DNA of 64,000 nt from Squalus acanthias. Its lineage: Eukaryota. Below the pieces are notes generated by a model. The model made no database searches and was not told where the DNA came from. It saw only the letters and a program-made list of their open reading frames with translations. Positions 11,289 through 45,742 of this stretch are shown piece by piece (position 1 is the stretch's first letter; every line of letters starts with the position of its first letter). The DNA lies in NCBI GenBank assembly GCA_030390025.1, contig JASTWF010000104.1, positions 310,001 to 374,000 on the forward strand. Direction: 5' to 3'. A program made the translations under genes and the position numbers.

Positions 11289-14139
11289 ATTATATAATAA
11301 TGGACACACAGCACCGCCTCCTGTACTGACACTCCCCACAGTTATATATAATATATAATAATGGACACACAGCACCGCCTCCTGTACTGACTCACCCCAC
11401 AGTTAAAAATAATATATAATAATGGACACACAGCACCGCCTCCTGTACTGACTCACCCCACAGTTATATATAATATATAATAATGGACACACAGCACCGC
11501 CTCCTGTACTGACTCACCCCACAGTTATATATAATATATAATAATAGACACACAGCACCGCCTCCTGTACTGACTCACCCCACAGTTATATATAATATGT
11601 AATAATGGACACACAGCACCGCCTCCTGTACTGACTCACCCCACAGTTATATATAATATATAATAATGGACACACAGCACCGCCTCCTGTACTGACTCAC
11701 CCCACAGTTATATATAATATATAATAATGGACACACAGCACCGCCTCCTGTACTGACTCACCCCACAGTTATATATAATATATAATAATGGACACACAGC
11801 ACCGCCTCCTGTACTGACTCACCCCACAGTTATATATAATATATAATAATGGACACACAGCACCGCCTCCTGTACTGACTCACCCCACAGTTATATATAA
11901 TATATAATAATGGACACACAGCACCGCCTCCTGTACTGACTCACCCCACAGTTATATATAATATATAATAATGGACACACAGCACCGCCTCCTGTACTGA
12001 CTCACCCCACAGTTATATATAATATATAATAATGGACACACAGCACCGCCTCCTGTACTGACTCACCCCACAGTTATATATAATATATAATAATGGACAC
12101 ACAGCACCGCCTCCTGTACTGACTCTACCCCACAGTTATATATAATATATAATAATGGACACACAGCACCGCCTCCTGTACTGACTCACCCCACAGTTAT
12201 ATATAATATATAATAATGGACACACAGCACCGCCTCCTGTACTGACTCACCCCACAGTTATATATAATATATAATAATGGACACACAGCACCGCCTCCTG
12301 TACTGACTCACCCCACAGTTATATATAATATATAATAATGGACACACAGCACCGCCTCCTGTACTGACACTCCCCACAGTTATATATAATATATAATAAT
12401 GGACACACAGCACCGCCTCCTGTACTGACTCACCCCACAGTTATATATAATATATAATAATGGACACACAGCACCGCCTCCTGTACTGACTCACCCCACA
12501 GTTATATATAATATATAATAATGGACACACAGCACCGCCTCCTGTACTGACTCACCCCACAGTTATATATAATAATAGACACACAGCACCGCCTCCTGTA
12601 CTGACTCACCCCACAGTTATATATAATATATAATAATGGACACACAGCACCGCCTCCTGTACTGACTCACCCCACAGTTATATATAATATATAATAATGG
12701 ACACACAGCACCGCCTCCTGTACTGACTCACCCCACAGTTATATATAATATATAATAATGGACACACAGCACCACCTCCTGTACTGACACACCCCACAGT
12801 TATATATAATATATAATAATGTACACACAGCACCGCCTCCTGTACTGACTCACCCCACAGTTATATATAATAATGGACACACAGCACCGCCTCCTGTACT
12901 GACTCACCCCACAGTTATATATAATATATAATAATGGACACACAGCACCGCCTCCTGTACTGACTCACCCCACAGTTATATATAATATATAATAATGGAC
13001 ACACAGCACCGCCTCCTGTACTGACTCACCCCACAGTTATATATAATATATAATAATGGACACACAGCACCACCTCCTGTACTGACTCACCCCACAGTTA
13101 TATATAATATATAATAATGGACACACAGCACCGCCTCCTGTACTGACTCACCCCACAGTTATATAAAATAATGGACACACAGCACCGCCTCCTGTACTGA
13201 CTCACCCCACAGTTATATATAATATATAATAATGGACACACAGCACCACCTCCTGTACTGACTCACCCCACAGTTATATATAATATATAATAATGGACAC
13301 ACAGCACCGCCTCCTGTACTGACACACCCCACAGTTATATATAATATATAATAATGGACACACAGCACCACCTCCTGTACTGACTCACCCCACAGTTATA
13401 TATAATAGATAATAATGGACACACAGCACCACCTCCTGTACTGACTCACCCCACAGTTATATATAATATATAATAATGGACACACAGCACCACCTCCTGT
13501 ACTGACTCACCCCACAGTTGTATATACATTGTAGACATGTTGCAAATAAGCTGCCTGGGTTAGAGAATCAGTGCATCTATACTGATCATTAAACTCGCTA
13601 GCTAGCGTATGAGAACTCTTAAGAAGCAATGTTAAACCTTTAAATGTTTTTATGCTAACAGATGACGTATTAGAAACAGATGCTTCGATCACCTACCTCA
13701 ACTGTGTTGGATAAATGAGCTGTTTAGTGCATTGCTGACACATGGCTCAATGAGAGTGACGGCAGAAATATTCACTGAAAGGTACAAGGAATTGAGAAAG
13801 GATGGAGCAGGTTAGAGCGGACCTGGGGCTGCTGTCTTCATCACTGAGAATCTCACAGCTCTACTCTTTTCATTGAAACAATAAGGAGACCCTGGATGGT
13901 CCCGGTGTCATCAATCAAAATCATCTAACAAAAGAGCCCACTATTGAGAGGGACACAAATTATAAAACCCAACTCATAAAAAATAAAGGAAACTGAACAA
14001 ATTAAATCATCAGGCTACTTCACTATCCACTACACACTCCAGTCCCTGCGGTGCCCACCGGTCACAGAAGGCCTAAAGCGCCCTGGCGGACTCCTTCTCC
14101 AGGGCCACCCTGGTGCAGACAAAGCCCCGGGAGAGAGGC

Positions 14140-17100
14140 AGGCAGCCCAGTTTGGGTTCCGCCAAGACCACTCAGCTGCCGACCTCATTACAGTCTTGGT
14201 CCAAACATGGACCAGGAGCTGGATTCCAGAGGAGAAGTGAGACTGACTGCCCTTGACATCAAGGCAGCATTTGACCGAGTGTGGCATCAAGGAGCCCCAG
14301 TAAAACTGAAGTCCATGGGAATCAGGGGGAAAACTCTCCACTGGCTGGAGTCATACCTAGCACAGAGGAAGATGGTTGTGGTGATTGAAGGTCAATCATC
14401 ACAGCCCCAGGACATCACTGCAGGAGTTCCTCAGGGCAGTATCCTAGGCCCAACCATCTTCAGCTGCTTCATCAATGACCTTCCCTCCAACATAAGGTCA
14501 GAAATGGGGATGTTCGCTGATAACTGCAGAGTGTTCAGTGCCATTCACAACTCCTCAGATAATGAAGCAGTCCATGCCCGCATGCAACAAGACCTGGACG
14601 ATGTTCAGGCTTGGGCTGATAAGTGGTAGGTAACATTCACGCCACAGAAGTGCCAGGCAATGACTGTCTCGAACAAGCGAGAGTCTAATCACCGCCCCTT
14701 GACATTCAATGGCATTACCATCGCCGAATCCCCCACCATCAACATCCTGGGGGTCACCATTGACCAGAAACTTAACTGGACCAGCCACATAAATACTGTG
14801 CTAACAAGAGCAGGTCAGAGGTTAGGTATTCTGTGGCGAGTGTCTCACCTCCTGACTCCCCAAAGCCTTTCTACCATCTACAAGGCACAAGCAAGGAGTG
14901 TGATGGAATACTCTCCACTTGCCTGGATGAGTGCAGCTCCAACAACACTCAAGAAGCTCGACACCATCCAGGACAAAGCAGCCCACTTGATTGGCACCCC
15001 ATCCACCACCTTAAACATTCACTCCCTCCACCACTGGTGTACCGTGGGTGCAGTGTGTACCATCTACAAGATGCACTGCAGCAACTCGCCAAGGCTTCTT
15101 CGGCAGCACCTCCCAAACCCGCGACCACTTCCACCTAGAGGACAAGGGCAGCAGGCGCATGGGAACACCACCACCTCCAAGTTCCCCTCCAAGTCACACA
15201 CCATCCTGACTTAGAATAATATCGCCGATCCTTCATTGTCACTGGTGTAAGGTTTCCAAAATTTGCAGATCCCCAAAACCTGAGGAAAAAGGACTTTGGA
15301 ACTACCTCAGAGTGATAATATTGTACTTGGGCCTAACCTAAGAGACTGTAAGACCAAAAACCAAGTTTTGGCATTTTAAAACTATGTCTGGGCCTGTAAA
15401 GGAACAAAAGGTGGGTCAACCTCTGTAAAAGCAGTTTTGGGTATTGCAGTTAATTGCACTGTCTGGGGAACCGGGATGACCTCACTCAAAGCCCCAGCAA
15501 GCATTAACATTTTGACAATAGACCCTAGGAGAAGACAGTCCCACCCAAAACAACAGGTCCCATCAAACCGATTACAGGACCCATCAGGAAACTTGCATAA
15601 TACAGAGCACCCAGGACTGGGCTATAGAAAAGTTGAGTCAAACTAGAAACCCAAAACACGAAACCAATCACCAGTAATCAGCCAAGGAGATCGACAGGAT
15701 GCAAACCATCCCAAAACCCATTTGACACTCACAGAGCAGTTACTGGTAACAGGCCCGCCAAATTCAGACAATGAACTGAGCAGATTTGGCGGGTAGATAA
15801 GGCCATGTTCAATGGGTGAGATTGAAGGCCTGTTAAAAACCCAGTTAACGTGCTAGTAAGTCGTTACCGATTTACGAGCCTGCCAAAACTAGACAATGAA
15901 CCGAGTAGATTTGGCGGGTAGATAAGGCCACTTCAATTCTGTATAACTGATGGCCCACCAAGCACACAGAGAGAGAGAGAAGAGCACAGTTTAAAGTTGT
16001 TGGGTCAAGCAGTCAGTCGCAACCACTGGTCATCAGAAGAAGAAGAGACCAAGAAGAAGACCCGAGTTGGAAGCGAGTCGGCATCACTCACCACTCAGAC
16101 TCACCTGAGTCCAGCTCGCGAAGACACCACCTCGACGGACCTCCAACAACGGCCCCAACACAGTCACCCAGAGCAACAAGCAGCAACAAGTCACCGACGG
16201 CTCCACAAGGTCGACTGACACACTAAACAAGGCCTAAAGCCATCGCGGAAACCGAACGCCTCACGAAACCAACAACCGCGCATTACCCCCAACTGACCGG
16301 GTAATAGCAGGCCACCGCGACCAACAAAGACCAACTCCAGGGAAGAAAACCCGAAGAATCGCAAAGTTTCCACACTACAAACTACTCCTGACTTACCCCT
16401 GAGTAAGATTTTCCCCAAAGACTCTAAGCCCTACTGCTCAACTAAAGAAATTGGGTACTCACCAGATAAATCCATAACGACATCCTACTGCATCAGCGGA
16501 CTCGCGAAGACTGACCAGAGACGCAGGTGAAGTCCTCTACCGCGTACGGGGTACGGCAGACACTAACCGCCATAAACAGCGAACCCCAAACTCGCGATTT
16601 AGCCCAACTGTCAAAGGATTGGTGAGCATTATCCCTGGTCCTTCAAAACCTAACTTAGCTGGTAAAGTGGGGTTGGGAGGGGTGAAGTATTGTTCTACTG
16701 TCATTTCCCTCGCTTGTACCGAAGTGTTCCCCACCTTTAGAGTGATAAGAGTGTTATTATTTGTGTCTTACCTTTTAATAAAGATTGAAGTTCTTTCATC
16801 AAACTCAGTTGTCTGCTGCACCTTTTGTATCACAACCCCCAAATAAGTCCAAGGTCTAGAACCAAGGGGGCGGGAGCGATTCAACCCGCTCAGAAGTCAG
16901 AGGTAAAGCTGACACACACCACCCCCTACACTGGGTCAAACCCTGGAACACCCTCCCTAACAGCACTGTGGGAGCACCTTCACCACATGGACTGCAGCGG
17001 TTCAAGAAGGCGGCTCACCACCACCTTCTCAAGGGCAACTAGGGATGGGCAATAAATGCTGTCCTTTCCAGCGACGCCAACATCCCATAAACAAATCAAA
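14140..17100 (+). mobile_element. 5'-truncated, degenerate non-LTR retrotransposon (CR1/L2-group RT to 3' tail), split by a solo LTR
   Basis: RT motifs QFGFR, LDIKAAFDRVWH, GVPQGSILGP..FINDL and FADN (degenerate YADD), with stops and frameshifts. The sequence resumes at 16931 after the LTR and ends with AATAAA and an A-rich tail near 17100. Confidence 0.88.
15246..16930 (+). mobile_element. Solo LTR, family A (1685 bp)
   Basis: Termini TGTAAGG...CCCTACA; 4-bp TSD CTGG on both sides; interrupts the LINE cleanly; AATAAA near 16777; ends homologous to 27005-28238. Confidence 0.88.
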
Positions 17101-30826: not shown

Positions 30827-33804
30827 CTGTTCAACAGGGCAACAGGCTGCCAGTTAAGCATCAAATCTCTCCTATTTTTAACTATTTTAATATCTAACCT
30901 GTCTGAAAATTAAAGAAACCAGATCGATCATTTGTTCTTTCTACATTGTGCAAATTGAGTCCTTGACCAGTTACTCTGTCGAGTCCACACACATCAGGTT
31001 GTGAAGACTGAAAGGGAAGAAGGTTGGAATAGTCCTGTTGAAAGATCCAGGCAGAATGTTTAGCGTGTTCGCAATATGTCCAGTGAGTGCCGGTGAGGCT
31101 TGGGGACCAACCTGAGCAAAACATCTCGATCAATGTGGGCGAACGGATGGGAGAGAGAGAGAACATTCTCAGTCAGTCTGTACAGAGAGAGAGAGAACAT
31201 TCTCAGTCAGTCTGTACAGAGAGAGAGAACATTCTCAGTCAGTCTGTACAGAGAGAGAGAACATTCTCAGTCAGTCTGTACAGAGAGAGAGAGAACATTC
31301 TCAGTCAGTCTGTACAGAGAGAGAGAGAACATTCTCAGTCAGTCTGTACAGAGAGAGAGAGAACATTCTCAGTCAGTCTGTACAGAGAGAGAGAGAGACA
31401 TTCTCAGTCAGTCTGTACAGAGAGAGAGAGAGAACATTCTCAGTCAGTCTGTACAGAGCGAGAGAGAGAGAGAGAGAACATTCTCAGTCAGTCTGTACAG
31501 AGAGAGAGAGAGAGGACATTCTCAGTCAGTCTGTACAGAGAGAGAGAGAGAACATTCTCAGTCAGTCTGTACAGAGCGAGAGAGAGAGAGAGAGAACATT
31601 CTCAGTCAGTCTGTACAGAGAGAGAGAGAGAAAGAACATTCTCAGTCAGTCTGTACAGAGAGAGAGAGACAGAACATTCTCAGTCAGTCTGTACAGAGAG
31701 AGAGAGAGAGAACATTCTCAGTCAGTCTGTACAGAGAGAGAGAGAGAGAACATTTTCAGTCAGTCTGCACAGAGAGAGAGAGAACATTCTCAGTCAGTCT
31801 GTACAGAGAGAGAGAGCATTCTCAGTCAGTCTGTACAGAGAGAGAGAACATTCTCAGTCAGTCTCTACAGAGAGAGAGAACATTCTCAGTCAGTCTGCAC
31901 AGAGAGAGAGAGAACATTCTCAGTCAGTCTGCACAGAGAGAGAGAACATTCTCAGTCAGACTGTACAGAGAGAGAACATTCTCAGTCAGACTGTACAGAG
32001 AGAGAGCGAGAACATTCTCAGTCAGTCTAAACAGAGAGCGAGAGAACATTCTCAGGCAGTCTGTACAGAGAGAGCGAGAACATTCTCAGTCAGTCTGTAC
32101 AGAGAGAGAACATTCTCAGTCAGTCTGTACAGAGAGAGAGAGAACATTCTCAGTCAGTCTGCACAGAGAGAGAGAGAGAGAACATTCTCAGTCAGTCTGT
32201 ACAGAGAGAGAGAGAACATTCTCAGTCAGTCTGTACAGAGAGAGAGAGAACATTCTCAGTCAGTCTGTACAGAGAGCGAGAGAACATTCTCAGGCAGTCT
32301 GTACAGAGAGAGCGAGAACATTCTCAGTCAGTCTGTACAGAGAGAGAACATTCTCAGTCAGTCTGTACAGAGAGAGAGAGAACATTCTCAGTCAGTCTGC
32401 ACAGAGAGAGAGAGAGAAACATTCTCAGTCAGTCTGTACAGAGAGAGAGAGAACATTCTCAGTCAGTCTGTACAGAGAGAGAGAGAACATTCTCAGTCAG
32501 TCTGTACAGAGAGAGAGAGAACATTCTCAGTCAGTCTGTACAGAGAGAGAGAGAGAACATTCTCAGTCAGTCTGTACAGAGAGAGAGAGAACATTCTCAG
32601 TCAGTCTGTACAGAGAGAGAGAGAACATTCTCAGTCAGTCTGTACAGAGAGAGAGAGAACATTCTCAGTCAGTCTGTACAGAGAGAGAGAGAACATTCTC
32701 AGTCAGTCTGTACAGAGAGAGAGAACATTCTCAGTCAGTCTGTACAGAGAGAGAGAACATTCTCAGTCAGTCTGTACAGAGAGAGAGAGAGAACATTCTC
32801 AGTCAGTCTGTACAGAGAGAGAGAACATTCTCAGTCAGTCTGTACAGAGAGAGAGAGAACATTCTCAGTCAGTCTGTGCAGAGAGAGAGAGAACATTCTC
32901 AGTCAGTCTGTACAGAGAGAGAGAGAACATTCTCAGTCAGTCTGTACAGAGGGAGAGATAACATTCTCAGTCAGTCTGTACAGAGAGAGAGAACATTCTC
33001 AGTCAGTCTGTACAGAGAGAGAGAGAGAACATTCTCAGTCAGTCTGTACAGAGAGAGACAGAACATTCTCAGTCAGTCTGTACAGAGAGAGAGAGAGAGA
33101 ACATTCTCAGTCAGTCTGTGCAGAGAGAGAGAGAACATTTTCAGTCAGTCTGTACAGAGAGAGAGAGAGAACATTCTCAGTCAGTCTGTACAGAGAGAGA
33201 GAGAACATTTTCAGTCAGTCTGTACAGAGAGAGAGAGAACATTCTCAGTCAGTCTGTACAGAGAGAGAGAGAACATTCTCAGTCAGTCTGTACAGAGAGA
33301 GAGAGAACATTCTCAGTCAGTCTGTACAGAGAGAGAGAGACAGAACATTCTCAGTCAGTCTGTACAGAGAGAGAGAGAACATTTTCAGTCAGTCTGTGCA
33401 GAGAGAGAGAGAACATTCTCAGTCAGTCTGTACAGAGAGAGAGAGAACATTCTCAGTCATTCTGTGCAGAGAGAGAGAAAACATTCTCAGTCAGTCTGTA
33501 CAGAGAGAGAGAGAACATTCTCAGTCATTCTGTGCAGAGAGAGAGAACATTCTCAGTCAGTCTGTACAGAGAGAGAGAGAGAGAACATTCTCAGTCAGTC
33601 TGTACAGAGAGAGAGAGAACATTCTCAGTCAGTCTGTACAGAGAGAGAGAGAACATTCTCAGTCAGTCTGTACAGAGAGAGAGAGAGAACATTCTCAGTC
33701 AGTCTGTACAGAGAGAGAGAGAACATTCTCAGTCAGTCTGTACAGAGAGAGAGAGAACATTCTCAGTCATTCTGTGCAGAGAGAGAGAGAACATTCTCAG
33801 TCAG

Positions 33805-33998
33805 TGTCGTAAGAATGAGCCTTACGCGTGGTGAACTTAAAGTAAGCTTTAATCAACTAAAAAGGTGCTACATACAAAAGAGGTCTTACTCTATGCCTCT
33901 CCAGGATCCAACTGATCAGTCCAGTATTTATCCTGGACTAATCACAGGAAGTGATGCAATAAAGTTCGAGTCACAGGAAGCTGTATTGTGTTACCACA
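33805..33998 (-). repeat. 3' LTR of the Gypsy element
   Basis: Direct repeat of 38052-38245, differing only at TGTCGT versus TGTCCT. Confidence 0.97.
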
Positions 33999-34010
33999 TT
34001 CTCCCCCCCC
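33999..34010 (-). promoter_or_regulatory. Polypurine tract
   Basis: GGGGGGGGAGAA on the - strand, abutting the 3' LTR. Confidence 0.9.
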
Positions 34011-34016
34011 AAAAGA

Positions 34017-37000
34017 TTAGGAGGCCGGGATGCTCCCTCCATTTCGTAGCCACCGGACGAGGGAGAGCCGCACCCGTTTGGGTTCTCGTAGCGGTAGAGG
34101 GCCCCTAGCCCGTTTACCCGCCGCGGGCCATGGACCAGAGTCCGAGTGATCCAGCCCACTCTGTGAGGGGTCAGGACGATCCTGACTGTGTACTGGTGCC
34201 CGAACGGGTGTCGGGCAGGGCTGTGGCAGATCCATTTCCGAGCGTACGGTACGGGGTGGATCGTGGCTGCGCGTGCGAGCCCTGACGGGCTCATAGTCAG
34301 TCTGCCCCAGGTCGGCACGCTGGAGTGAGGTACCAGCCGGCGTCAGATCCAGATAGTGATGAGAGGCACCTGGCGAGCCCAGAGATGTGCCTGGTACAAT
34401 ATCATCCCCTGGTGTCCCTCTATGTTTCGGCGGGCAGGGAGCCAGATCCCGCAATGACACGGTAGATTCCCGACCGTCAGGATACCGAATATAGGCGTAG
34501 GTAGGGTTGACGTCAGTGAGCTCAACCTCATCTACCAGGGGGTCATTCTTAGACGCCCGAACATATCTTCGGAGTAGCACTGGTCCCGGTGCAGTCAGCC
34601 ACGACGGGAGAGATATCCCATAGGATGAGCAACGCTGAAATCGGAAGAACCGTTCATGAGGCGTTGTATTTGTGGCGGTCGAAAGGAGGGACCGTGTGGA
34701 GTGTAATGCGTCTGGAAGTACTGCTTCCCATTGCTGGTTAGGTAGGCCCCGAGATCTCAATGCCAGACGTACCGCATTCCAGATGATAGCGTTAAAACGC
34801 TCGACTTGCCCATTCCCGACCGGATGATAAGGCGTCGTTCTGCTGGCAGCAATACCCCGTTCCGAGAGATAGGCCTTGAGTTCTCCTGACATAAAAGAAG
34901 GGCCCCGATCCGAATGAACATAGGATGCCATGCCACAGAAAGCAAACACCTGCTCAAGGCAGCTGATAACCGTGGTCGTCAGCATATTGGGGCAGGGAAA
35001 GGCAAACGGAAAACGGGAATACTCATCGACCATGGTCAATAGATAAGTGTTGCGAGTTGAAGAGGGCAACGGCCCCTTAAAATCGATGCTAAGCCGTTGC
35101 ATTGGCTGGGTCGCATGTATGAGTATACCACCCGAGGGGCGGAAAAACTGACGTTTCAATTCCACACAGACTCTGCAGTCCGAGCACATCTTCTTTACAT
35201 CCCCGGTAGAGAATGGGAGATTTCGGGACCGCACGAAGTGTAGCATGCGAGTAACGACCGGATGACACAAGCCATCATGGATGTCTACGAGCGTAGAGTG
35301 TGCCATGGCGGAGCAGAATGCTCGTGTGAGGGTATCCGGAGCCACATTCTCCTTGCCAGGTCGATAGTGGATGGTGTAACCAAAAGAGGCCAATTCCAGC
35401 CGCCAAAGCTGGATTTTATTATTTTTAATTTTGGTCCATTTTCGATTATCGAGCATGAAGGCGACCGATCGCTGGTCCGTGATTAAGGTAAAGTGCTGGC
35501 GAGCTAGGAGATGACTCCACTTCCGTACTGCCTCTATGATGGCTGTAGCTTCTTTCTCGACTGGAGGATAATGTAGCTCAGCTCCTTGAAAAGTCCTGGA
35601 CAAAAATGCCACCGGACGACCTTCCTGATTCAGAGTGGCCGAGATCGCCACCTCCGAGGCATCACACTCAACAACAAAAGGAAGACTCTCATCGATGGAG
35701 TGAAGAGCCGCTTTCTCCAACTGTTTTTTCAGGAGGTTAAAGGCTGCAACAGCCGCTGTGTCTAGTGGGAATGTGCTGGCCTTCAGTAGAGGTTGGATTC
35801 GGTCCGAGAAGTTAGGAATCCATTTAGCATAGTATGCAAACAGGCCGAGGGCCCGGCGCAAGGAGGCCGGATTCTTAGGTGGCGGGAGTTCTTGGAGTGG
35901 GCGAAGCCTTTCAGGGTCAGGTTTAATTATGCCATTTCCCACACAATAGCCAAGGATGTTGATGGTTGGTTGTGACTCAATGGATTTAGCCGCATTTAAT
36001 GTCAAATTACGGTGCTGGAGTGCATCCCAAAATCGTTGGAGATTGGCGTCATGTTCCCGCTGATTGCGACCTGCGACAGTAATATTGTCCAGATAAGGAA
36101 ACGTATCCTTCAAGTCTTCCTGTTTGACCAGGTCATCCATTGCTCGCTGGAAGACAGCCACTCCATTAGTGACCCCAAAGGGGAGGCGACGAAATTGATA
36201 CAGCCGTCCATTGGCTTCAAAGGCCGTATACTGCTTGTCTGAGACCTTCAAGGGTACCTGATGATAGGCACTTTTCAGATCATATGTTGAGAACACCGTG
36301 TACTCAGCCAGTTTATTAACCATATCATCGATGCGCGGCAATGGGTATGCGTCCAAGTCCGTATATTGATTGATGGTCTGTGAATAGTCAATGCACAGCC
36401 GTTTCTTGTGAGGTTGTAGAGGGTTCTTAACAATAACGACCTGGGCGCGCCATGGCGATGAACAAGACTCGATGATATCCTCTGCTAAAAGCCGAGAAAT
36501 CTCAGCCGCAATAAAAGACTGGTCTTCCTGACTGAAACGTCATGACTTTGTTATAATCGGTTTGCATCGAGGAGGGATACTGGTAAACAGTGAGGGTTCA
36601 TCCAGTGAAGCTGCTGACAATGCACAGAACGGTAATCGAGGTCGTATATTAGAAATAGTGAGTTCAGGTTTGGATCCGCCGAACTCAATGGTGAGCTTCT
36701 TATGCTGCTTTTGAAAATCCAGCCCTAAGATAAGATCACTACATAAGTCCTTGAGCACTGAAAGCCGGGTGGAGGGATACCTGTGACCATTAAGTGTTAT
36801 TTCAACCATACAAAAGCCAGAAATTCTGGTATTAAGTGATGACTGAGCCATCGCAATTGCCTGGTCCGATGGGAAAACATGTAGCTTTAACTCTGCAACA
36901 ATCTGTTCCTTAATGAAACTATCAGTGCTACCTGAGTCAATTAAGGCATCTAAAGTATGTCCATTAATTGATGCTTTTGTAGCTGCATGGAATAGGTTCT

Positions 37001-37973
37001 GAGGACAAGCAGCTGTAATTGGTGTCGTTGCACAAAGAGTGGCTGAAACTCTAGGTGTGTTTCTTCGAGAGAAAACCCGAGAGGAAGCACGATAGATTTT
37101 AGCCGGAACATCTTGATAGGCCCTTACCGGGGCAGTTCGGTAGGACTTAGCTTGATAAGCCCTCGTAGAGGCTCTTGATAGGCAAACCTTTGCAAAATGA
37201 CCCTTTTTGTTGCAATGACTGCAAAACGCATTGCGAGCAGGGCAGAATTTCCGAGGGTGAAACTCATCACCACAAAAGAAGCATTTCTTAGATTGCCAAG
37301 AGGCTGCCACAGTGGGGTCATCATCCTCTTCATCAGTGAAGTCATCAGATTGATCGTCAGGGATAAAGTCCTCCCTAATAGAGTTCACCTGTGGCCTCTT
37401 AAATTGCCTGACTGTAGTTAAGGCAGCAGACCGAGGTCTGGGCACTGTATAAAGGTCTGCATTTCTTTTTGCCAGATCTAGAGAGCAAGCCATGTCATAA
37501 GCTCTCTGAAGCCCAAGTGTCTTACTTTCCAGTAGACGCTGGCGTATAAATGGGGAGGCAAGCCCGCAGATGAAAGCATCACGGATCATTTCTTCACGGT
37601 ACAGCTCAGCTGAGGCCGCCTGAAAGTTACAGTCCATACTAAGTCTGCGAAGCTCTTGGAGGAATTTATCAATGGATTCCTCCGGCCCTTGTTGGGCTGT
37701 AGCTAGTAGATGTCTGGCATAGACCTCATTCGGTGTCTTAGTAGAAAGTCTTTTAAGCGTCCGAATTGCCTCCTCGTAACTGCCCCATTCCTCCACATAC
37801 TGAAATACATTCGGGGTGACACAGTTGATGAGTATCCGCAACTTTGAGTCATCATCAGCTTTGCAATATTCGAGAAAATTGTCAAACGTGCGATACCAGT
37901 GTTTCCACACCTTACCGGCTGCTGGGGTGTTTGGGTCCAAGTCAAGACGCGATGGTTTAAGGATGTTTTCCAT
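34017..37973 (-). pseudogene. Single-frame gag-pol polyprotein with one premature TGA (36540-36542)
   Basis: ORFs 36540-37973 and 34017-36356 are in the same frame. Motifs: two CCHC knuckles (CFFCGDEFHPRKFC, CSHCNKKGHFAKVC), protease LIDSGS, RT YDLKSAYHQ and YLDNI (YxDD altered), RNase H ECDAS..EKEA..TDQ, integrase HHCC plus DFKGP..SDRG..NGQVER. Confidence 0.93.
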
Positions 37974-38039
37974 GATGGGTGATTCCCTGGATCCTCAGTT
38001 CCGAGTTCGTCCAAAAAGTTTGAGTGCGAAGTTTTTCAA

Positions 38040-38050
38040 AGTTGATTAAA
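38040..38050 (-). promoter_or_regulatory. Non-tRNA primer-binding site complementary to the element's own LTR (putative self-priming)
   Basis: Sense strand TTTAATCAACT lies 1 nt after the 5' LTR and is the exact reverse complement of sense AGTTGATTAAA inside the LTR (38095-38105). There is no TGG start. Confidence 0.8.
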
Positions 38051-38051
38051 T

Positions 38052-38245
38052 TGTCCTAAGAATGAGCCTTACGCGTGGTGAACTTAAAGTAAGCTTTAAT
38101 CAACTAAAAAGGTGCTACATACAAAAGAGGTCTTACTCTATGCCTCTCCAGGATCCAACTGATCAGTCCAGTATTTATCCTGGACTAATCACAGGAAGTG
38201 ATGCAATAAAGTTCGAGTCACAGGAAGCTGTATTGTGTTACCACA
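38052..38245 (-). repeat. 5' LTR of the Gypsy element
   Basis: Direct repeat of 33805-33998. Confidence 0.97.
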
Positions 38246-41200
38246 GTCAGTCTGTACAGAGAGAGAGAGAACATTCTCAGTCAGTCTGTACAGAGAGAGA
38301 GAGAGAACATTCTCAGTCAGTCTGTACAGAGAGAGAGAGAGAGAGAACATTCTCAGTCAGTCTGTACAGAGAGAGAGAGAACATTCGCAGTCAGTCTGTA
38401 CAGAGAGAGAGAGAATATTCTCAGTCAGTCTGTACAGAGAGAGAGAACATTCGCAGTCAGTCTGTACAGAGAGAGAGAGAATATTCTCAGTCAGTCTGTA
38501 CAGAGAGAGAGAGAACATTCTCAGTCAGTCTGTACAGAGAGAGAGAGAGAGAACATTCTCAGTCAGTCTGTACAGAGAGAGAGAGAGAGAACATTCTCAG
38601 TCAGTCTGTACAGAGAGAGAGAGAGAGAGAACATTCTCAGTCAGTCTGTACAGAGAGAGAGAGAACATTCTCAGTCAGTCTGTACAGAGAGAGAGAGAGA
38701 GAGAGAACATTCTCAGTCAGTCTGTACAGAGAGAGCGACAACATTCTCAGTCAGTCTGTACAGAGAGAGAGAGAACATTCTCAGTCAGTCTGTGCAGAGA
38801 GAGAAAGAGAACATTCTCAGTCAGTCTGTACAGAGGAAGCGACAACATTCTCAGTCAGTCTGTACAGAGAGAGAGAACATTCTCAGTCAGTCTGTACAGA
38901 GAGAGCGAGAGAACATTCTCAGTCAGTCTGTACAGAGAGAGAGAGAGAGAACATTCTCAGTCAGTCGGTACAGAGAGAGAGAGAACATTCTCAGTCAGTC
39001 TGTACAGAGAGAGAGAACATTCTCAGTCAGTCTGTACAGAGAGAGAGAGAACATTCTCAGTCAGTCTGTACAGAGAGAGAGAGAGAGAGAGAGAGAACAT
39101 TCTCAGTCAGTCTGTACAGAGAGAGAGAGAACATTCTCAGTCAGTCTGTACAGAGAGAGAGAGAGAGAACATTCTCAGTCAGTCTGTACAGAGAGAGAGA
39201 GAGAACATTCTCAGTCAGTCTGTACAGAGAGAGAGAGAGAACATTCTCAGTCAGTCTGTACAGAGAGAGAGAGAACATTCTCAGTCAGTCTGTACAGAGA
39301 GAGAGAGAACATTCTCAGTCAGTCTGTACAGAGAGATAGAGAGAGAGAACATTCTCAGTCAGTCTGTACAGAGAGAGAGAGAACATTCTCAGTCAGTCTG
39401 TACAGAGAGAGAGAGAGAGAACATTCTCAGTCAGTCTGTACAGAGAGAGAGAGAACATTCTCAGTCAGTCTGTACAGAGAGAGAGAGAACATTCTCAGTC
39501 AGTCTGTACAGAGAGAGAGAGAACATTCTCAGTCAGTCTGTACAGAGAGAGAGAGAACATTCTCAGTCAGTCTGTACAGAGAGAGAGAGAACATTCTCAG
39601 TCAGTCTGTACAGAGAGAGAGAACATTCTCAGTCAGTCTGTACAGAGAGAGAGAGAACATTCTCAGTCAGTCTGTACAGAGAGAGAGAGAACATTCTCAG
39701 TCAGTCTGTACAGAGAGAGAGAGAACATTCTCAGTCAGTCTGTACAGAGAGAGAGAGAACATTCTCAGTCAGTCTGTACAGAGAGAGAGAGAACATTCTC
39801 AGTCAGTCTGTACAGAGAGAGAGAACATTCTCAGTCAGTCTGTACAGAGAGAGAGAGAACATTCTCAGTCAGTCTGTACAGAGAGAGAGAACATTCTCAG
39901 TCAGTCTGTACAGAGAGAGAGAGAACATTCTCAGTCAGTCTGTACGAGAGAGAGAGAACATTCTCAGTCAGTCTGTACAGAGAGAGAGAACATTCTCAGT
40001 CAGTCTGTACAGAGAGAGAGAGAGAACATTCTCAGTCAGTCTGTACAGAGAGAGAGAGAACATTCTCAGTCAGTCTGTACAGAGAGAGAGAGAACATTCT
40101 CAGTCAGTCTGTACAGAGAGAGAGAGAACATTCTCAGTCAGTCTGTACAGAGAGAGAGAGAACATTCTCAGTCAGTCTGTACAGAGAGAGAGAGAGAGAA
40201 CATTCTCAGTCAGTCTGTACAGAGAGAGAGAACATTCTCAGTCAGTCTGTACAGAGAGAGAGAACATTCTCAGTCAGTCTGTACAGAGAGAGAGAGAACA
40301 TTCTCAGTCAGTCTGTACAGAGGAGAGAGAGACATTCTCAGTCAGTCTGTACAGAGAGAGAGAGAGAACATTCTCAGTCAGTCTGTACAGAGAGAGAGAA
40401 CATTCTCAGTCAGTCTGTACAGAGAGAGAGAGAACATTCTCAGTCAGTCTGTACAGAGAGAGAGAGAACATTCTCAGTCAGTCTGTACAGAGAGAGAGAG
40501 AACATTCTCAGTCAGTCTGTACAGAGAGAGAGAACATTCTCAGTCAGTCTGTACAGAGAGAGAGAGAACATTCTCAGTCAGTCTGTACAGAGAGAGAGAG
40601 AGAACATTCTCAGTCAGTCTGTACAGAGAGAGAGAGAACATTCTCAGTCAGTCTGTACAGAGAGAGAGAGAACATTCTCAGCCAGTCTGTACAGAGAGAG
40701 AGAGAACATTCTCAGTCAGTCTGTACAGAGAGAGCGAGAACATTCTCAGTCAGTCTGTACAGAGAGAGAGAGAGAGAACATTCTCAGTCAGTCTGTACAG
40801 AGAGAGAGAGAACATTCTCAGTCAGTCTGTACAGAGAGAGAGAGAACATTCTCAGTCAGTCTGTACAGAGAGAGAGAACATTCTCAGTCAGTCTGTACAG
40901 AGAGAGAGAGAACATTCTCAGTCAGTCTGTACAGAGAGAGAGAACATTCTCAGTCAGTCTGTACAGAGAGAGAGAACATTCTCAGTCAGTCTGTACAGAG
41001 AGAGAGAGAGAGAACATTCTCAGTCAGTCTGTACAGAGAGAGAGAGAACATTCTCAGTCAGTCGGTACAGAGAGAGAGAGAACATTCTCAGTCAGTCTGT
41101 ACAGAGAGAGAGAGAACATTCTCAGTCAGTCTGTACAGAGAGAGAGCGAGAACATTCTCAGTCAGTCTGTAAGAGAGAGAGATAGAGAGAACATTCTCAG

Positions 41201-42147
41201 TCAGTCGGTACAGAGAGAGAGAGAGAACATTCTCAGTCAGTCTGTACAGAGAGAGAGAGAACATTCTCAGTCAGTCTGTACAGAGAGAGAGAGAGAGAAC
41301 ATTCTCAGTCAGTCTGTACAGAGAGAGAGAGAGAGAACATTCTCAGTCAGTCTGTACAGAGAGAGAGAGAACATTCTCAGTCAGTCTGTACAGAGAGAGA
41401 GAACATTCTCAGGCAGTCTGTACAGAGAGAGAACATTCTCAGTCAGTCTGTACAGAGAGAGAGAGAGAACATTCTCAGTCAGTCTGTACAGAGAGAGAGA
41501 GAGAGAACATTCTCAGTCAGTCTGTACAGAGAGAGAGAGAACATTCTCAGTCAGTCTGTACAGAGAGAGAGAGAGAGAGAACATTCTCAGTCAGTCTGTA
41601 CAGAGAGAGCGACAACATTCTCAGTCAGTCTGTACAGAGAGAGAGAGAACATTCTCAGTCAGTCTGCAGAGAGAGAGCGAGAACATTCTCAGTCAGTCTG
41701 CAGAGAGAGAGCGAGAACATTCTCAGTCAGTCTGTACAGAGAGAGAGAGAGAGAACATTCTCAGTCAGTCTGTACAGAGAGAGAGAGAACATTCTCAGTC
41801 AGTCTGTACAGAGAGAGAGAGAGAACATTCTCAGTCAGTCTGTACAGAGAGAGAGAGAACATTCTCAGTCAGTCTGTACAGAGAGAGAAAGAGAACATTC
41901 TCAGTCAGTCTGTACAGAGAGAGAGAGAGAGAACATTCTCAGTCAGTCTGTACAGAGAGAGAGAGAGAACATTCTCAGTCAGTCTGTACAGAGAGAGAAA
42001 GAGAACATTCTCAGTCAGTCTGTACAGAGAGAGAGAGAACATTCTCAGTCAGTCTGTACAGAGAGAGAGAGAACATTCTCAGTCAGTCTGTGCAGAAATG
42101 AGAAGTCGCACAACACCAGGTTATAGTCCAACAGATTTATTTAATTT

Positions 42148-42914: not shown

Positions 42915-45742
42915 CTAGAATTCACAATTTAAACACAGACAAAATATATTCAAATCTTTCCCTACATCAAAGAGCACAGCCAAGACAATGAGATGTGTCC
43001 CAGGGGGTCCAACGTGTCAAACCACCTGCTGGCTGCATCTCCTGTCAATCTGTGTAGGTTCTTGTGTTAGTCTTTTTAAAAAAAAACACCTGGGAAGACC
43101 GGCCATGATGTCAAGTCACGTTCTGTATCGTGACATGAACCCGATATCGCGATTGAGGCCATCCTCATGAGTGCGGAACTTGGCTATCAGTTTCTGCTCT
43201 ATGATTTTGCGCTGTCGTGTATCTCGAAGGCCGCCTTGGAGAACGCTTACCCGCATATCCGAGGCTGAATGCCCCTGGCTGCTGAAGTGTTCCCCGACTG
43301 GGAGGCAACCCTCCTGCCTGGCGATTGTTGCGCGGTGTCCGTTCATACGTTGTCTCAGTGTCTGCATGGTCTCGCCGATGTACCATGCTCTGGAGCATCC
43401 TTTACTGCAACGTATCAGGTAGACAACGTTGGCCGAGTCACATGAGTATGTACCATGTACCTGGTGGGTAGTGTCCTCACGTGTGATGATGGTATCTGTG
43501 TCCATGATTTGGCATGTCTTGCAGCGGTTGCCGTGGCAGGGTTGTGTGGTGTCTTGGTTGCTGTTCTCCTGAAAGATGGGTAATCTGCTGCGAACGATGG
43601 TACTTTTGAGGTTAGGCGGCTGCTTGAAGGCGAGTAGTGGAGGCGTGGGGATGGCCTTAGCAAGGTGTTCGTCGTCATCGATGACATGTTGAAGGCTGCG
43701 AAGAATATGGCGTAGTTTTTCCGCTCCGGGGAAGTACTGGACGACGTAGGGTACTCTGTTGGTTGTGTCCCGTGTTCGTCTTCTGAGGAGGTCTATGCGG
43801 TTTTTCGCTGTGGCCCGTCGGAACTGTCGATCGACGAGTCGAGCGTCATATCCCGTTCTTACGAGGGCGTCTTTCAGTGTCCATAGCGTTCCTCCTCGTC
43901 TGAGCAGATCCTGTGTATTCACAGGGCTTGTCCATAGGGGATGGCTTCTTTAACGTGGTTAGGGTGGAAGCTGGAGAAGTGGAGCATCGTGAGGTTGTCC
44001 GTGGGCTTGCGGTAGAGTGAAGTGCTGAGGCGTCCGTCTTTGATGGAGATTCGTGTGTCCAAGAATGAAACCGATTCTGAGGAGTAGTCCATGGTGAGTT
44101 TGATGGTGGGATGGAACCTGTTGATGCTATCATGTAGTCCTTTCAGTGATCCTTCGCCGTGGGTCCAAAGGAAGAAGATGTCGTCGATGTATCTGGTGTA
44201 CAGCGTTGGTTCGAGGTCCTGTGCAGCGAAGAAGTCTTGCTCGAACTTGTGCATGAAGATGTTGGCATATTGGGGTGCGAATTTGGTCCCCATGGCTGTT
44301 CCGTGTGTTTGGGTAAAAAAATGGTTGTCGAAGGTGAAGACATTGTGGTCAAGGATGAAGCGGATGAGTTGTAGGATGGCGTCCGGAGATTGGCTGTTGT
44401 TGGTGTTGAGTACTGAGGCTGTCGCAGCGATGCCGTCATTGTGGGGGATATTGGTGTAGAGTGCCGATACGTCCATTGTGACGAGGAGTGTTCCTGGTTC
44501 AACTGGTCCATGGGTGCTGAGTTTCTGCAAGAAGTCTGTAGTGTCGCGACAGAAGCTGGGGGTTCCCTGTACGATGGGTTTCTGTACAGAGAGAGAGAGA
44601 GAGGGAACATTCTCAGTCAGTCGGTACAGAGAGAGAGAGAGAGAGAACATTCTCAGTCAGTCTGTACAGAGAGAGAGAGAGAGGGAACATTCTCAGTCAG
44701 TCGGTACAGAGAGAGAGAGAGAGAGAACATTCTCAGTCAGTCTGTACAGAGAGAGAGAGAGAGAACATTCTCAGTCAGTCTGTACAGAGAGAGAGAGAGA
44801 GAGGGAACATTCTCAGTCAGTCTGTACAGAGAGAGAGAGAACATTCTCAGTCAGTCTGTACAGAGAGAGAGAGAGAGAGAACATTCTCAGTCAGTCTGTA
44901 AGAGAGAGAGAGAACATTCTCAGTCAGTCTGTACAGAGAGAGAGAACATTCTCAGTCAGTCCGTGCAGAGAGAGAGAGAGAACATTCTCAGTCAGTCTGT
45001 GCAGAGAGAGAGAGAGAACATTCTCAGTCAGTCTGTACAGAGAGAGAGAGAACATTCTCAGTCAGTCTGTAAGAGAGAGAGAGAGAGAACATTCTCAGTC
45101 AGTCTGTACAGAGAGAGAGAACATTCTCAGTCAGTCCGTGCAGAGAGAGAGAGAGAACATTCTCAGTCAGTCTGTGCAGAGAGAGAGAGAGAACATTCTC
45201 AGTCAGTCTGTACAGAGAGAGAGAGAACATTCTCAGTCAGTCCGTGCAGAGAGAGAGAGAGAACATTCTCAGTCAGTCCGTGCAGAGAGAGAGAGAGAAC
45301 ATTCTCAGTCAGTCTGTACAGAGAGAGAGAGAACATTCTCAGTCAGTCCGTGCAGAGAGAGAGAGAGAACATTCTCAGTCAGTCCGTGCAGAGAGAGAGA
45401 GAGAACATTCTCAGTCAGTCTGTACAGAGAGAGAGAGAACATTCTCAGTCAGTCTGTACAGGGTGAGTGTAAACAGTAAACACATGGATTGCAGATAGCC
45501 CCTCACCCCTCAGGCAGACTGTGGAATTGATCCTCTCACTATGTTAACCTGCGACGATATCAATCAACAACTGATGGCAATGAAAGTGACGACAAGATCT
45601 GGTAATAAAATACAACATTTCTGGCGATACAATCAACAAACCAACAATTGTTAACATTGGATTAAATAATGAAGAAGTATTTGAATGTACAAAAAGGCCT
45701 AAGGTGGGCAGCCCGTCCCAAGCTGGAGATCAGGGCGGTCGG

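Follow-up and report, generated by a model that had tools for sequence, protein, structure and literature searches.

Retrotransposons of one animal Ty3/Gypsy clade very probably prime reverse transcription with a stretch of their own RNA, a reading that rests on comparative sequence analysis: their primer-binding site (PBS) has its complement in their own LTR. Here, we describe a member of this clade in the window (the whole stretch of 64,000 nucleotides of Squalus acanthias DNA that was analysed), together with its relatives. The process most likely works as it does in Tf1, with a different RNA layout and in a Gypsy clade that lacks chromovirus markers. A wider picture is put forward tentatively. 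An animal Gypsy clade reaching from cnidarians to fish may have evolved self-priming, or kept it, apart from Tf1/sushi elements; a single cassette of 11-13 nt would combine three roles, its 5' end being the transcription initiator, its 3' end the poly(A) signal and its whole length the primer, a small hairpin would mark the cut, and a derived sub-clade would carry Asn for the last catalytic Asp of reverse transcriptase (RT).

The element in the window

The element occupies 33805-38245 on the minus strand and is a young Ty3/Gypsy LTR retrotransposon, identified by its LTRs, target-site duplication, polypurine tract, RT and domain order (PR-RT-RH-IN). The LTRs, 194 nt each and bounded by TG..CA, differ by 1 mismatch (193/194 identical), and among solved structures the RT is closest to that of Ty3 (4OL8, E 3.9e-51). 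The features are as follows.

38246..38250, minus strand: target-site duplication CTGAC, 5 bp, 5' side
38052..38245, minus strand: 5' LTR, 194 nt, TG..CA
38172..38179, minus strand: TATA-like GATAAATA, 74 nt upstream of the arm; position not conserved in relatives
38095..38105, minus strand: candidate self-primer arm AGTTGATTAAA, putative primer
38105, minus strand: arm 5' end, initiator-like A in TTAGTT context
38100-38095, minus strand: arm 3' end, ATTAAA, likely poly(A) signal
38082..38094, minus strand: small hairpin from the first base past the arm, RCCT..AGGY in most relatives
38051, minus strand: single unpaired A at the junction of LTR end and PBS
38040..38050, minus strand: PBS TTTAATCAACT, exact complement of the arm, without TGG
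36540..37973, minus strand: Gag (two CCHC-type knuckles) and protease, in-frame stop at end
34017..36539, minus strand: RT, RNase H and integrase, without chromodomain; catalytic residues of RNase H and integrase present
36084..36095, minus strand: RT catalytic box YLDN in place of YxDD, common to most close relatives
33999..34010, minus strand: polypurine tract
33805..33998, minus strand: 3' LTR
33848-33858, minus strand: second copy of the arm, in the 3' LTR, no PBS behind it
33800..33804, minus strand: target-site duplication CTGAC, 3' side

An in-frame stop (36540-36542) lies between protease and RT, where relatives have one continuous ORF, and the window copy is probably dead although young.

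Complementarity between LTR and primer-binding site

The final CA of the 5' LTR is followed by A (38051) and then by TTTAATCAACT (38050-38040), the exact complement of AGTTGATTAAA within the same LTR (38105-38095). An earlier note on this DNA had described the PBS in these terms, as an 11-mer exactly complementary to the element's own LTR and without TGG, and the description holds. Its two accompanying observations hold as well: the LTR half of the pairing contains ATTAAA, and the PBS stands behind the 5' LTR only, the arm copy in the 3' LTR having none behind it. When the LTR was shuffled with its dinucleotides preserved, a complement of at least 11 nt starting 0-3 nt from the LTR end arose in 6 of 20,000 shuffles.

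For the 11-bp helix, pairing probability averages 0.83-0.94, according to where the 5' end is taken to lie, but total folding energy does not stand out (z -1.09 and -1.65). The same note had extended the pairing by five A-U pairs beyond a 3-nt bulge (38036-38032 with 38110-38106). These pairs are possible in the sequence; the minimum free energy fold forms three of them and the centroid none, so that this modelled extension is weak. An Rfam search of 37900-38260 gave no match.

Relatives and counting rules

Relatives were collected by a metagenome scan, from which the best 80 of 319 confirmed loci were taken; they share 32-53% identity in Gag-protease. Those homologues whose source is named belong to cnidarians, molluscs, crustaceans, an ant, a sea cucumber, a tunicate, hagfish and a catshark. 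No relatives were found among the viral contigs searched, and the ESM Atlas returned generic Gag clusters only. A motif-free scan for inverted repeats covered up to 300 nt before gag in the best 80 of 319 loci. For counting, the LTR end was set at the CA/AT junction nearest gag, a rule that keeps 66 of 81 sequences (the 80 loci and the window); of the 15 dropped, 12 lack the junction motif and 3 do not have enough DNA upstream. In the motif-free scan, four of these 15 still pair over 13-18 bp. The 66 kept loci form 33 families, and the first member of each family was counted.

The placement of the LTR end was compared with the point at which the two LTRs of a locus diverge in 20 two-LTR loci, 9 more being excluded as truncated or with a repeat ending too far from gag. 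The LTR ends at CA/AT in 15 of the 20; among the rest, three copies from a single family have the end 3 nt earlier, and the other two gave no clear end. In family L045-L047 the LTR ends 4 nt, not 1 nt, before the paired site.

Covariation across families

The motif-free scan of the best 80 of 319 loci finds a perfect inverted repeat of at least 11 bp in 57 of the 80 (hand count), its right arm almost always directly after CA-A. Under the counting rule, at least 11 perfect pairs are formed in 27 of 33 families (first members), compared with 7 of 1,056 cross-family pairings, and in 50 of 66 loci, both counts being from the window and the best 80 of 319. The other 6 first members form fewer than 11 pairs; three are anchored at the wrong CA and pair over 12, 16 and 9 bp at the upstream CA, and one (L056) has no match. 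TGG stands at the PBS in 0 of 66 loci (the same sample from the best 80 of 319 and the window).

Two further comparisons examine pairing cell by cell. With motif-only anchoring on both sides, possible in 30 of 33 families and without removing the misses, Watson-Crick pairs fill 255 of the 300 cells at positions 4-13; 20,000 permutations average 146 and never exceed 182. In a MAFFT alignment blind to structure and restricted to 27 families (L030, L056 and L064 left out as mis-anchored or unpaired, and L009, L033 and L071 for want of a unique anchor), 98% of 351 cells pair, compared with 23-47% in slid controls. Twelve of the 13 pairs in this alignment have changed on both sides, and 0 of 500 shuffles reach the observed result; shuffle counts are not probabilities here, since the families are related. 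The slid and cross-family controls preserve this relatedness.

In most families the perfect pairing is 13-18 nt long, and pairing together with covariation reaches positions 12-13, often going beyond them. The PBS begins with TTTAW, which is conserved across families, and positions 5-13 differ and follow each family's own LTR. The earlier note had proposed that the element may self-prime and had pointed to covariation between PBS and LTR in relatives as a check. Complementarity proves to be both conserved and covarying, and this comparative evidence strongly supports the proposal that self-priming may occur.

Several features of the region around the PBS were observed in passing. The leader is very short, the gag match usually starting about 10-60 nt past the LTR end (L001-L080, the best 80 of 319), and the paired site runs up to the ATG in several families, so the helix could also affect translation. 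At L080:131-254 there are two PBS-like copies, each behind CA-A and with the same arm partner, across loops of 31 and 87 nt; the doubled PBS is a local duplication of LTR end and PBS. A Gmr1-like Gypsy element (integrase before RT) directly adjoins the 5' LTR of L008 (L008:1-4788, minus strand); it proved unsuitable as a PBS control.

Signs of copying, predicted cut site and putative RNA start

The main helix is nearly free of G-U pairs. Its 627 cells, taken from the 57 locus anchors in which 8 or more of 11 positions pair, comprise 615 Watson-Crick pairs, 1 G-U pair and 11 mismatches; the adjacent hairpin has 17 G-U among 92 pairs. In L008, which is about 1.0-1.4% diverged from three siblings, the two LTR arms share one substitution, and the PBS carries its complement. 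Such a matched change is what one round of plus-strand copying of the primer into the PBS would be expected to leave, under the standard scheme of LTR replication; strong selection could be an alternative source. One-sided breaks of the helix occur in some copies (e.g. L003, L015 and L036) and look like decay after insertion; the 3' LTR of L036 keeps the matching base. In assembled RNA contigs the LTR varies close to the arm (one base more at its 5' edge, an altered hairpin loop), and none of the substitutions listed falls in the 11-mer or PBS; the contigs do not link LTR to PBS and are therefore not counted as evidence.

Both ends of the arm carry conserved marks. The 3' end is fixed at AAA^RCC, and a stem of at least 4 bp begins at the next base in 20 of 29 families, where 2.9 are expected. 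The predicted cut site in the window lies between 38095 and 38094 and is marked by the small hairpin. Of 120 homologues, 119-120 keep the catalytic residues of RNase H, which are present in the window too. At the other end, an initiator-like AG stands at positions 11/10 before the arm 3' end in 18 of 28 families, compared with a background of 5%. The initiator is given as TCAKTY in the available part of PMC3601003, and TTAGTT of the window matches 5 of its 6 bases. A TATA box at a fixed distance from the arm (25-30 nt before it) was looked for in the relatives and not found.

The earlier note had proposed checking whether the transcript starts at or near 38105. The AG lies exactly 11 nt before the arm 3' end in the 18 of 28 families, which gives some support to such a start, but pairing runs to 13-18 nt in most families. 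Because perfect pairing continues past the initiator-like A at position 11, a primer of exactly 11 nt is not established; mixed start sites could explain the pairing beyond 11 nt.

Proposed mechanism

The proposed mechanism can be set out as a series of steps. The RNA would start at the arm or a few bases before it, at the initiator-like YNAG, and the arm would fold forward across a loop of 24-87 nt to pair with the PBS. A cut at the junction of arm and small hairpin (AAA^RCC), probably made by the element's own RNase H as in Tf1, would free a 3'-OH, from which RT would copy the loop into a short strong-stop DNA. This DNA would transfer to the 3' end of the RNA, where a hexamer at the arm end would put the poly(A) site shortly inside the copied region. 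Plus-strand synthesis would finally copy the primer back into the PBS, and for this reason arm and PBS would stay matched.

Alternative explanations

The helix starts one base past the LTR end, which is where a primer must sit, and this argues for priming beyond structure only. One alternative concerns the poly(A) signal. In 19 of 29 families the last bases of the arm are AATAAA or ATTAAA, which means that in the 5' copy the signal would lie within the helix, and the PBS partner stands only behind the 5' LTR; the pairing might then serve mainly to mask the 5' LTR signal while another RNA primes. We regard this as most improbable, because 10 of the 29 pairing families have neither AATAAA nor ATTAAA at the arm end (one has TGAAGA), and in 3 of these 10 a member carries the hexamer outside the helix. 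A masking helix would also tolerate G-U pairs and need no fixed register, whereas only 1 of 627 cells is G-U and the register is fixed; moreover, the pairing covers the very site that a primer must occupy. The dual-purpose RNA switch of the earlier note, in which the same hairpin would hide the poly(A) signal in the 5' LTR, is for the same reasons at most secondary: masking is not the main purpose of the helix and may be a by-product. The placement of the hexamer may instead reflect the need for a poly(A) site shortly after the cut, giving strand transfer a matching region. As an observation on the arm itself, those of L025 and L048 end in TGAAGA, with no canonical hexamer in arm or loop, yet pair over 15 bp.

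Two other readings keep an RNA primer and change its source. If the arm lay upstream of the start site, only the copy at the 3' end of the RNA, or a second RNA, could pair, and priming would be long-range or intermolecular. The pairing does pass the initiator-like A in most families and the arm is present in both LTRs, but a cut in the 3'-end copy would be expected to leave that RNA without an acceptor for first-strand transfer; every family has a short loop (24-87 nt) and the initiator-like motif lies at the arm 5' end, as for a local 5' fold. We consider this arrangement very unlikely. That a host half-tRNA or other small RNA primes, with the LTR match secondary, would suit the conserved TTTAW at the start of the PBS, and half-tRNA priming is known in Copia lineages according to the part of PMC6317226 available. 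PBS positions 5-13, however, track each family's own LTR, including the private change in L008, and one host RNA could not do this; priming by such an RNA seems extremely improbable. tRNA genes were searched for in 28 loci and none was found. The preferred reading is priming by the element's own arm.

Comparison with known self-priming elements

The closest parallel is Tf1, in which the element's own first 11 RNA bases are the primer and RNase H cuts between bases 11 and 12 (PMC7175516, in the part available). The PBS of the window clade is complementary to its own 5' LTR and not to a tRNA, as in Tf1 and Tf2 of S. pombe, Tj1 of S. japonicus and the Tf1/sushi chromoviruses, and the conserved AG 11 nt before its arm end recalls the 11-base primer described there for Tf1. 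Differences are found in the RNA layout and in the protein. The window clade has a local hairpin after the arm, and its arm usually ends in a poly(A) hexamer, unlike Tf1/sushi; it has two CCHC knuckles, no chromodomain was found, and its RT box is mostly YxDN, again unlike Tf1/sushi as far as these are described in the excerpts available. Tf1/sushi elements form a three-duplex 'pretzel' and carry a chromodomain (PMC10085805, as far as available). A pretzel of the Tf1 type was considered for the window clade and rejected: the flanking duplexes have the same length within a family as across families (4.4 against 4.7 and 5.6 against 5.6, in 29 families). The portion of supplement 3 of PMC2774666 available scores CCHC arrays as 0 in Tf1/Tf2 and 1 in sushi, with a chromodomain in sushi and none in Tf1. 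By three tests, the pretzel, the chromodomain and the number of CCHC arrays, the clade does not look like a member of the Tf1/sushi group.

Self-priming has been proposed more widely. The available text of PMC6317226 lists it for Tf1/sushi, for Tcn1 (moss chromoviruses) and for the Copia TAR lineage. In the plant Ty1/Copia elements TAR, Houba and Osr-1 and in Tcn1, as in the window clade, it is predicted from complementarity of LTR and PBS, and TAR indicates that self-priming has been proposed outside chromoviruses too; unlike the window clade, these elements belong to plant hosts and to Copia or chromovirus lineages, as far as these sources cover them. Skipper elements have neither TGG nor an LTR complement in the part of PMC5006619 available. 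Surveys of mollusc and annelid Gypsy clades (PMC6238403, PMC8556966) do not treat the PBS in the portions of their main text available.

Placement of the clade

A full-length single ORF is found in 62 of 120 Pol homologues, with a median of 1,213 aa, and two CCHC arrays in 48 of the 62. The earlier note had seen two CCHC knuckles in the Gag of the window and no evident chromodomain; the knuckles are there, and a chromodomain was found neither in the window (Pfam), nor in the 7 full-length relatives scanned, nor in the precomputed domains of the 120 homologues. Its view that the element does not look like a Tf1/sushi chromovirus is supported by these marker features and not by phylogeny, the tree being without named references. 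In this tree (FastTree, RT-RH, 116 rows) the window lies in a clade of 61 rows (SH 100) apart from 55 other Gypsy RTs. A scan of 24 long outgroup-type proteins detected no chromodomain, and the tree is thus also without a named chromovirus.

The marker tables in PMC2774666 (supplement 3, as far as available) fit Branch 2, either the Mag cluster or Cigr-1, better than Tf1/Tf2 or sushi. The window clade resembles the Cigr-1 clade and Mag cluster (GyDB Branch 2) in its two CCHC arrays, ILG protease motif, integrase after RNase H, and absence of chromodomain and env, and GPV in the window fits the GxV/I state of Mag, in the descriptions available. Unlike Cigr-1 as described there, it has a protease flap of MAQS, MASS or MALT rather than TANG, and the GPV motif is present, whereas GPY/F is scored 'lost' in Cigr-1. 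Because the flap is unlike that of Cigr-1 and the comparison with Cigr-1 and Mag covered marker descriptions only, the clade is left unnamed. The single ORF of the relatives is about 1,210 aa long, which presumably fits the length of the Cigr-1 ORF. The C-terminal tail of the window element (about 34017-34400, minus strand) is unlike that of its relatives, with 264 aa after the integrase E motif compared with a median of 199.

The last catalytic position of the RT box is Asn in 102 and Asp in 15 of the 120 homologues, the window having YLDN. YxDN is found mainly in a nested sub-clade of the RT-RH tree and appears to be derived within the clade. A tie between YxDN and self-priming was considered and rejected, as pairing is seen in L054 and L057, which have YxDD. 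In Ty1, RT with this change retains polymerase activity in vitro but transposition is blocked (PMC2148107, in the part available), which makes a natural YxDN RT of separate interest.

Novelty and significance

Among Gypsy elements, self-priming is tied to Tf1/sushi chromoviruses in the parts of PMC6317226 and PMC10085805 available. In the literature searched, which did not extend to Repbase or to several key papers, neither self-priming nor YLDN is described for the window clade, and a search for 'YLDN' with 'reverse transcriptase' found no paper; the novelty of self-priming in this clade is provisional. PMC3601003, as far as available, suggests that self-priming is ancestral. Self-priming in another broad lineage of animals, with an RNA fold of its own, would bear on whether the trait is ancestral or has arisen repeatedly. 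The clade also offers a compact test system, since nature supplies dozens of compensatory variants and the cut site is predicted. Elements of this kind would be independent of host tRNA and would presumably lack the tRNA-complementary site through which tRNA fragments silence other LTR elements. Annotation software for which a tRNA PBS is obligatory would rate them incomplete.

Surroundings of the element

The element sits in a satellite of 34-36 bp with AG runs (31151-33805, 38244-42096 and 44592-45461), and a good part of the window consists of tandem repeats, with units of 61, 49, 27 and 32 bp, among others. Two more RT fragments (Pfam RVT_1), at 14006-14626 on the plus strand and 43922-44656 on the minus strand, do not match the Gypsy RT query and are probably non-LTR elements.
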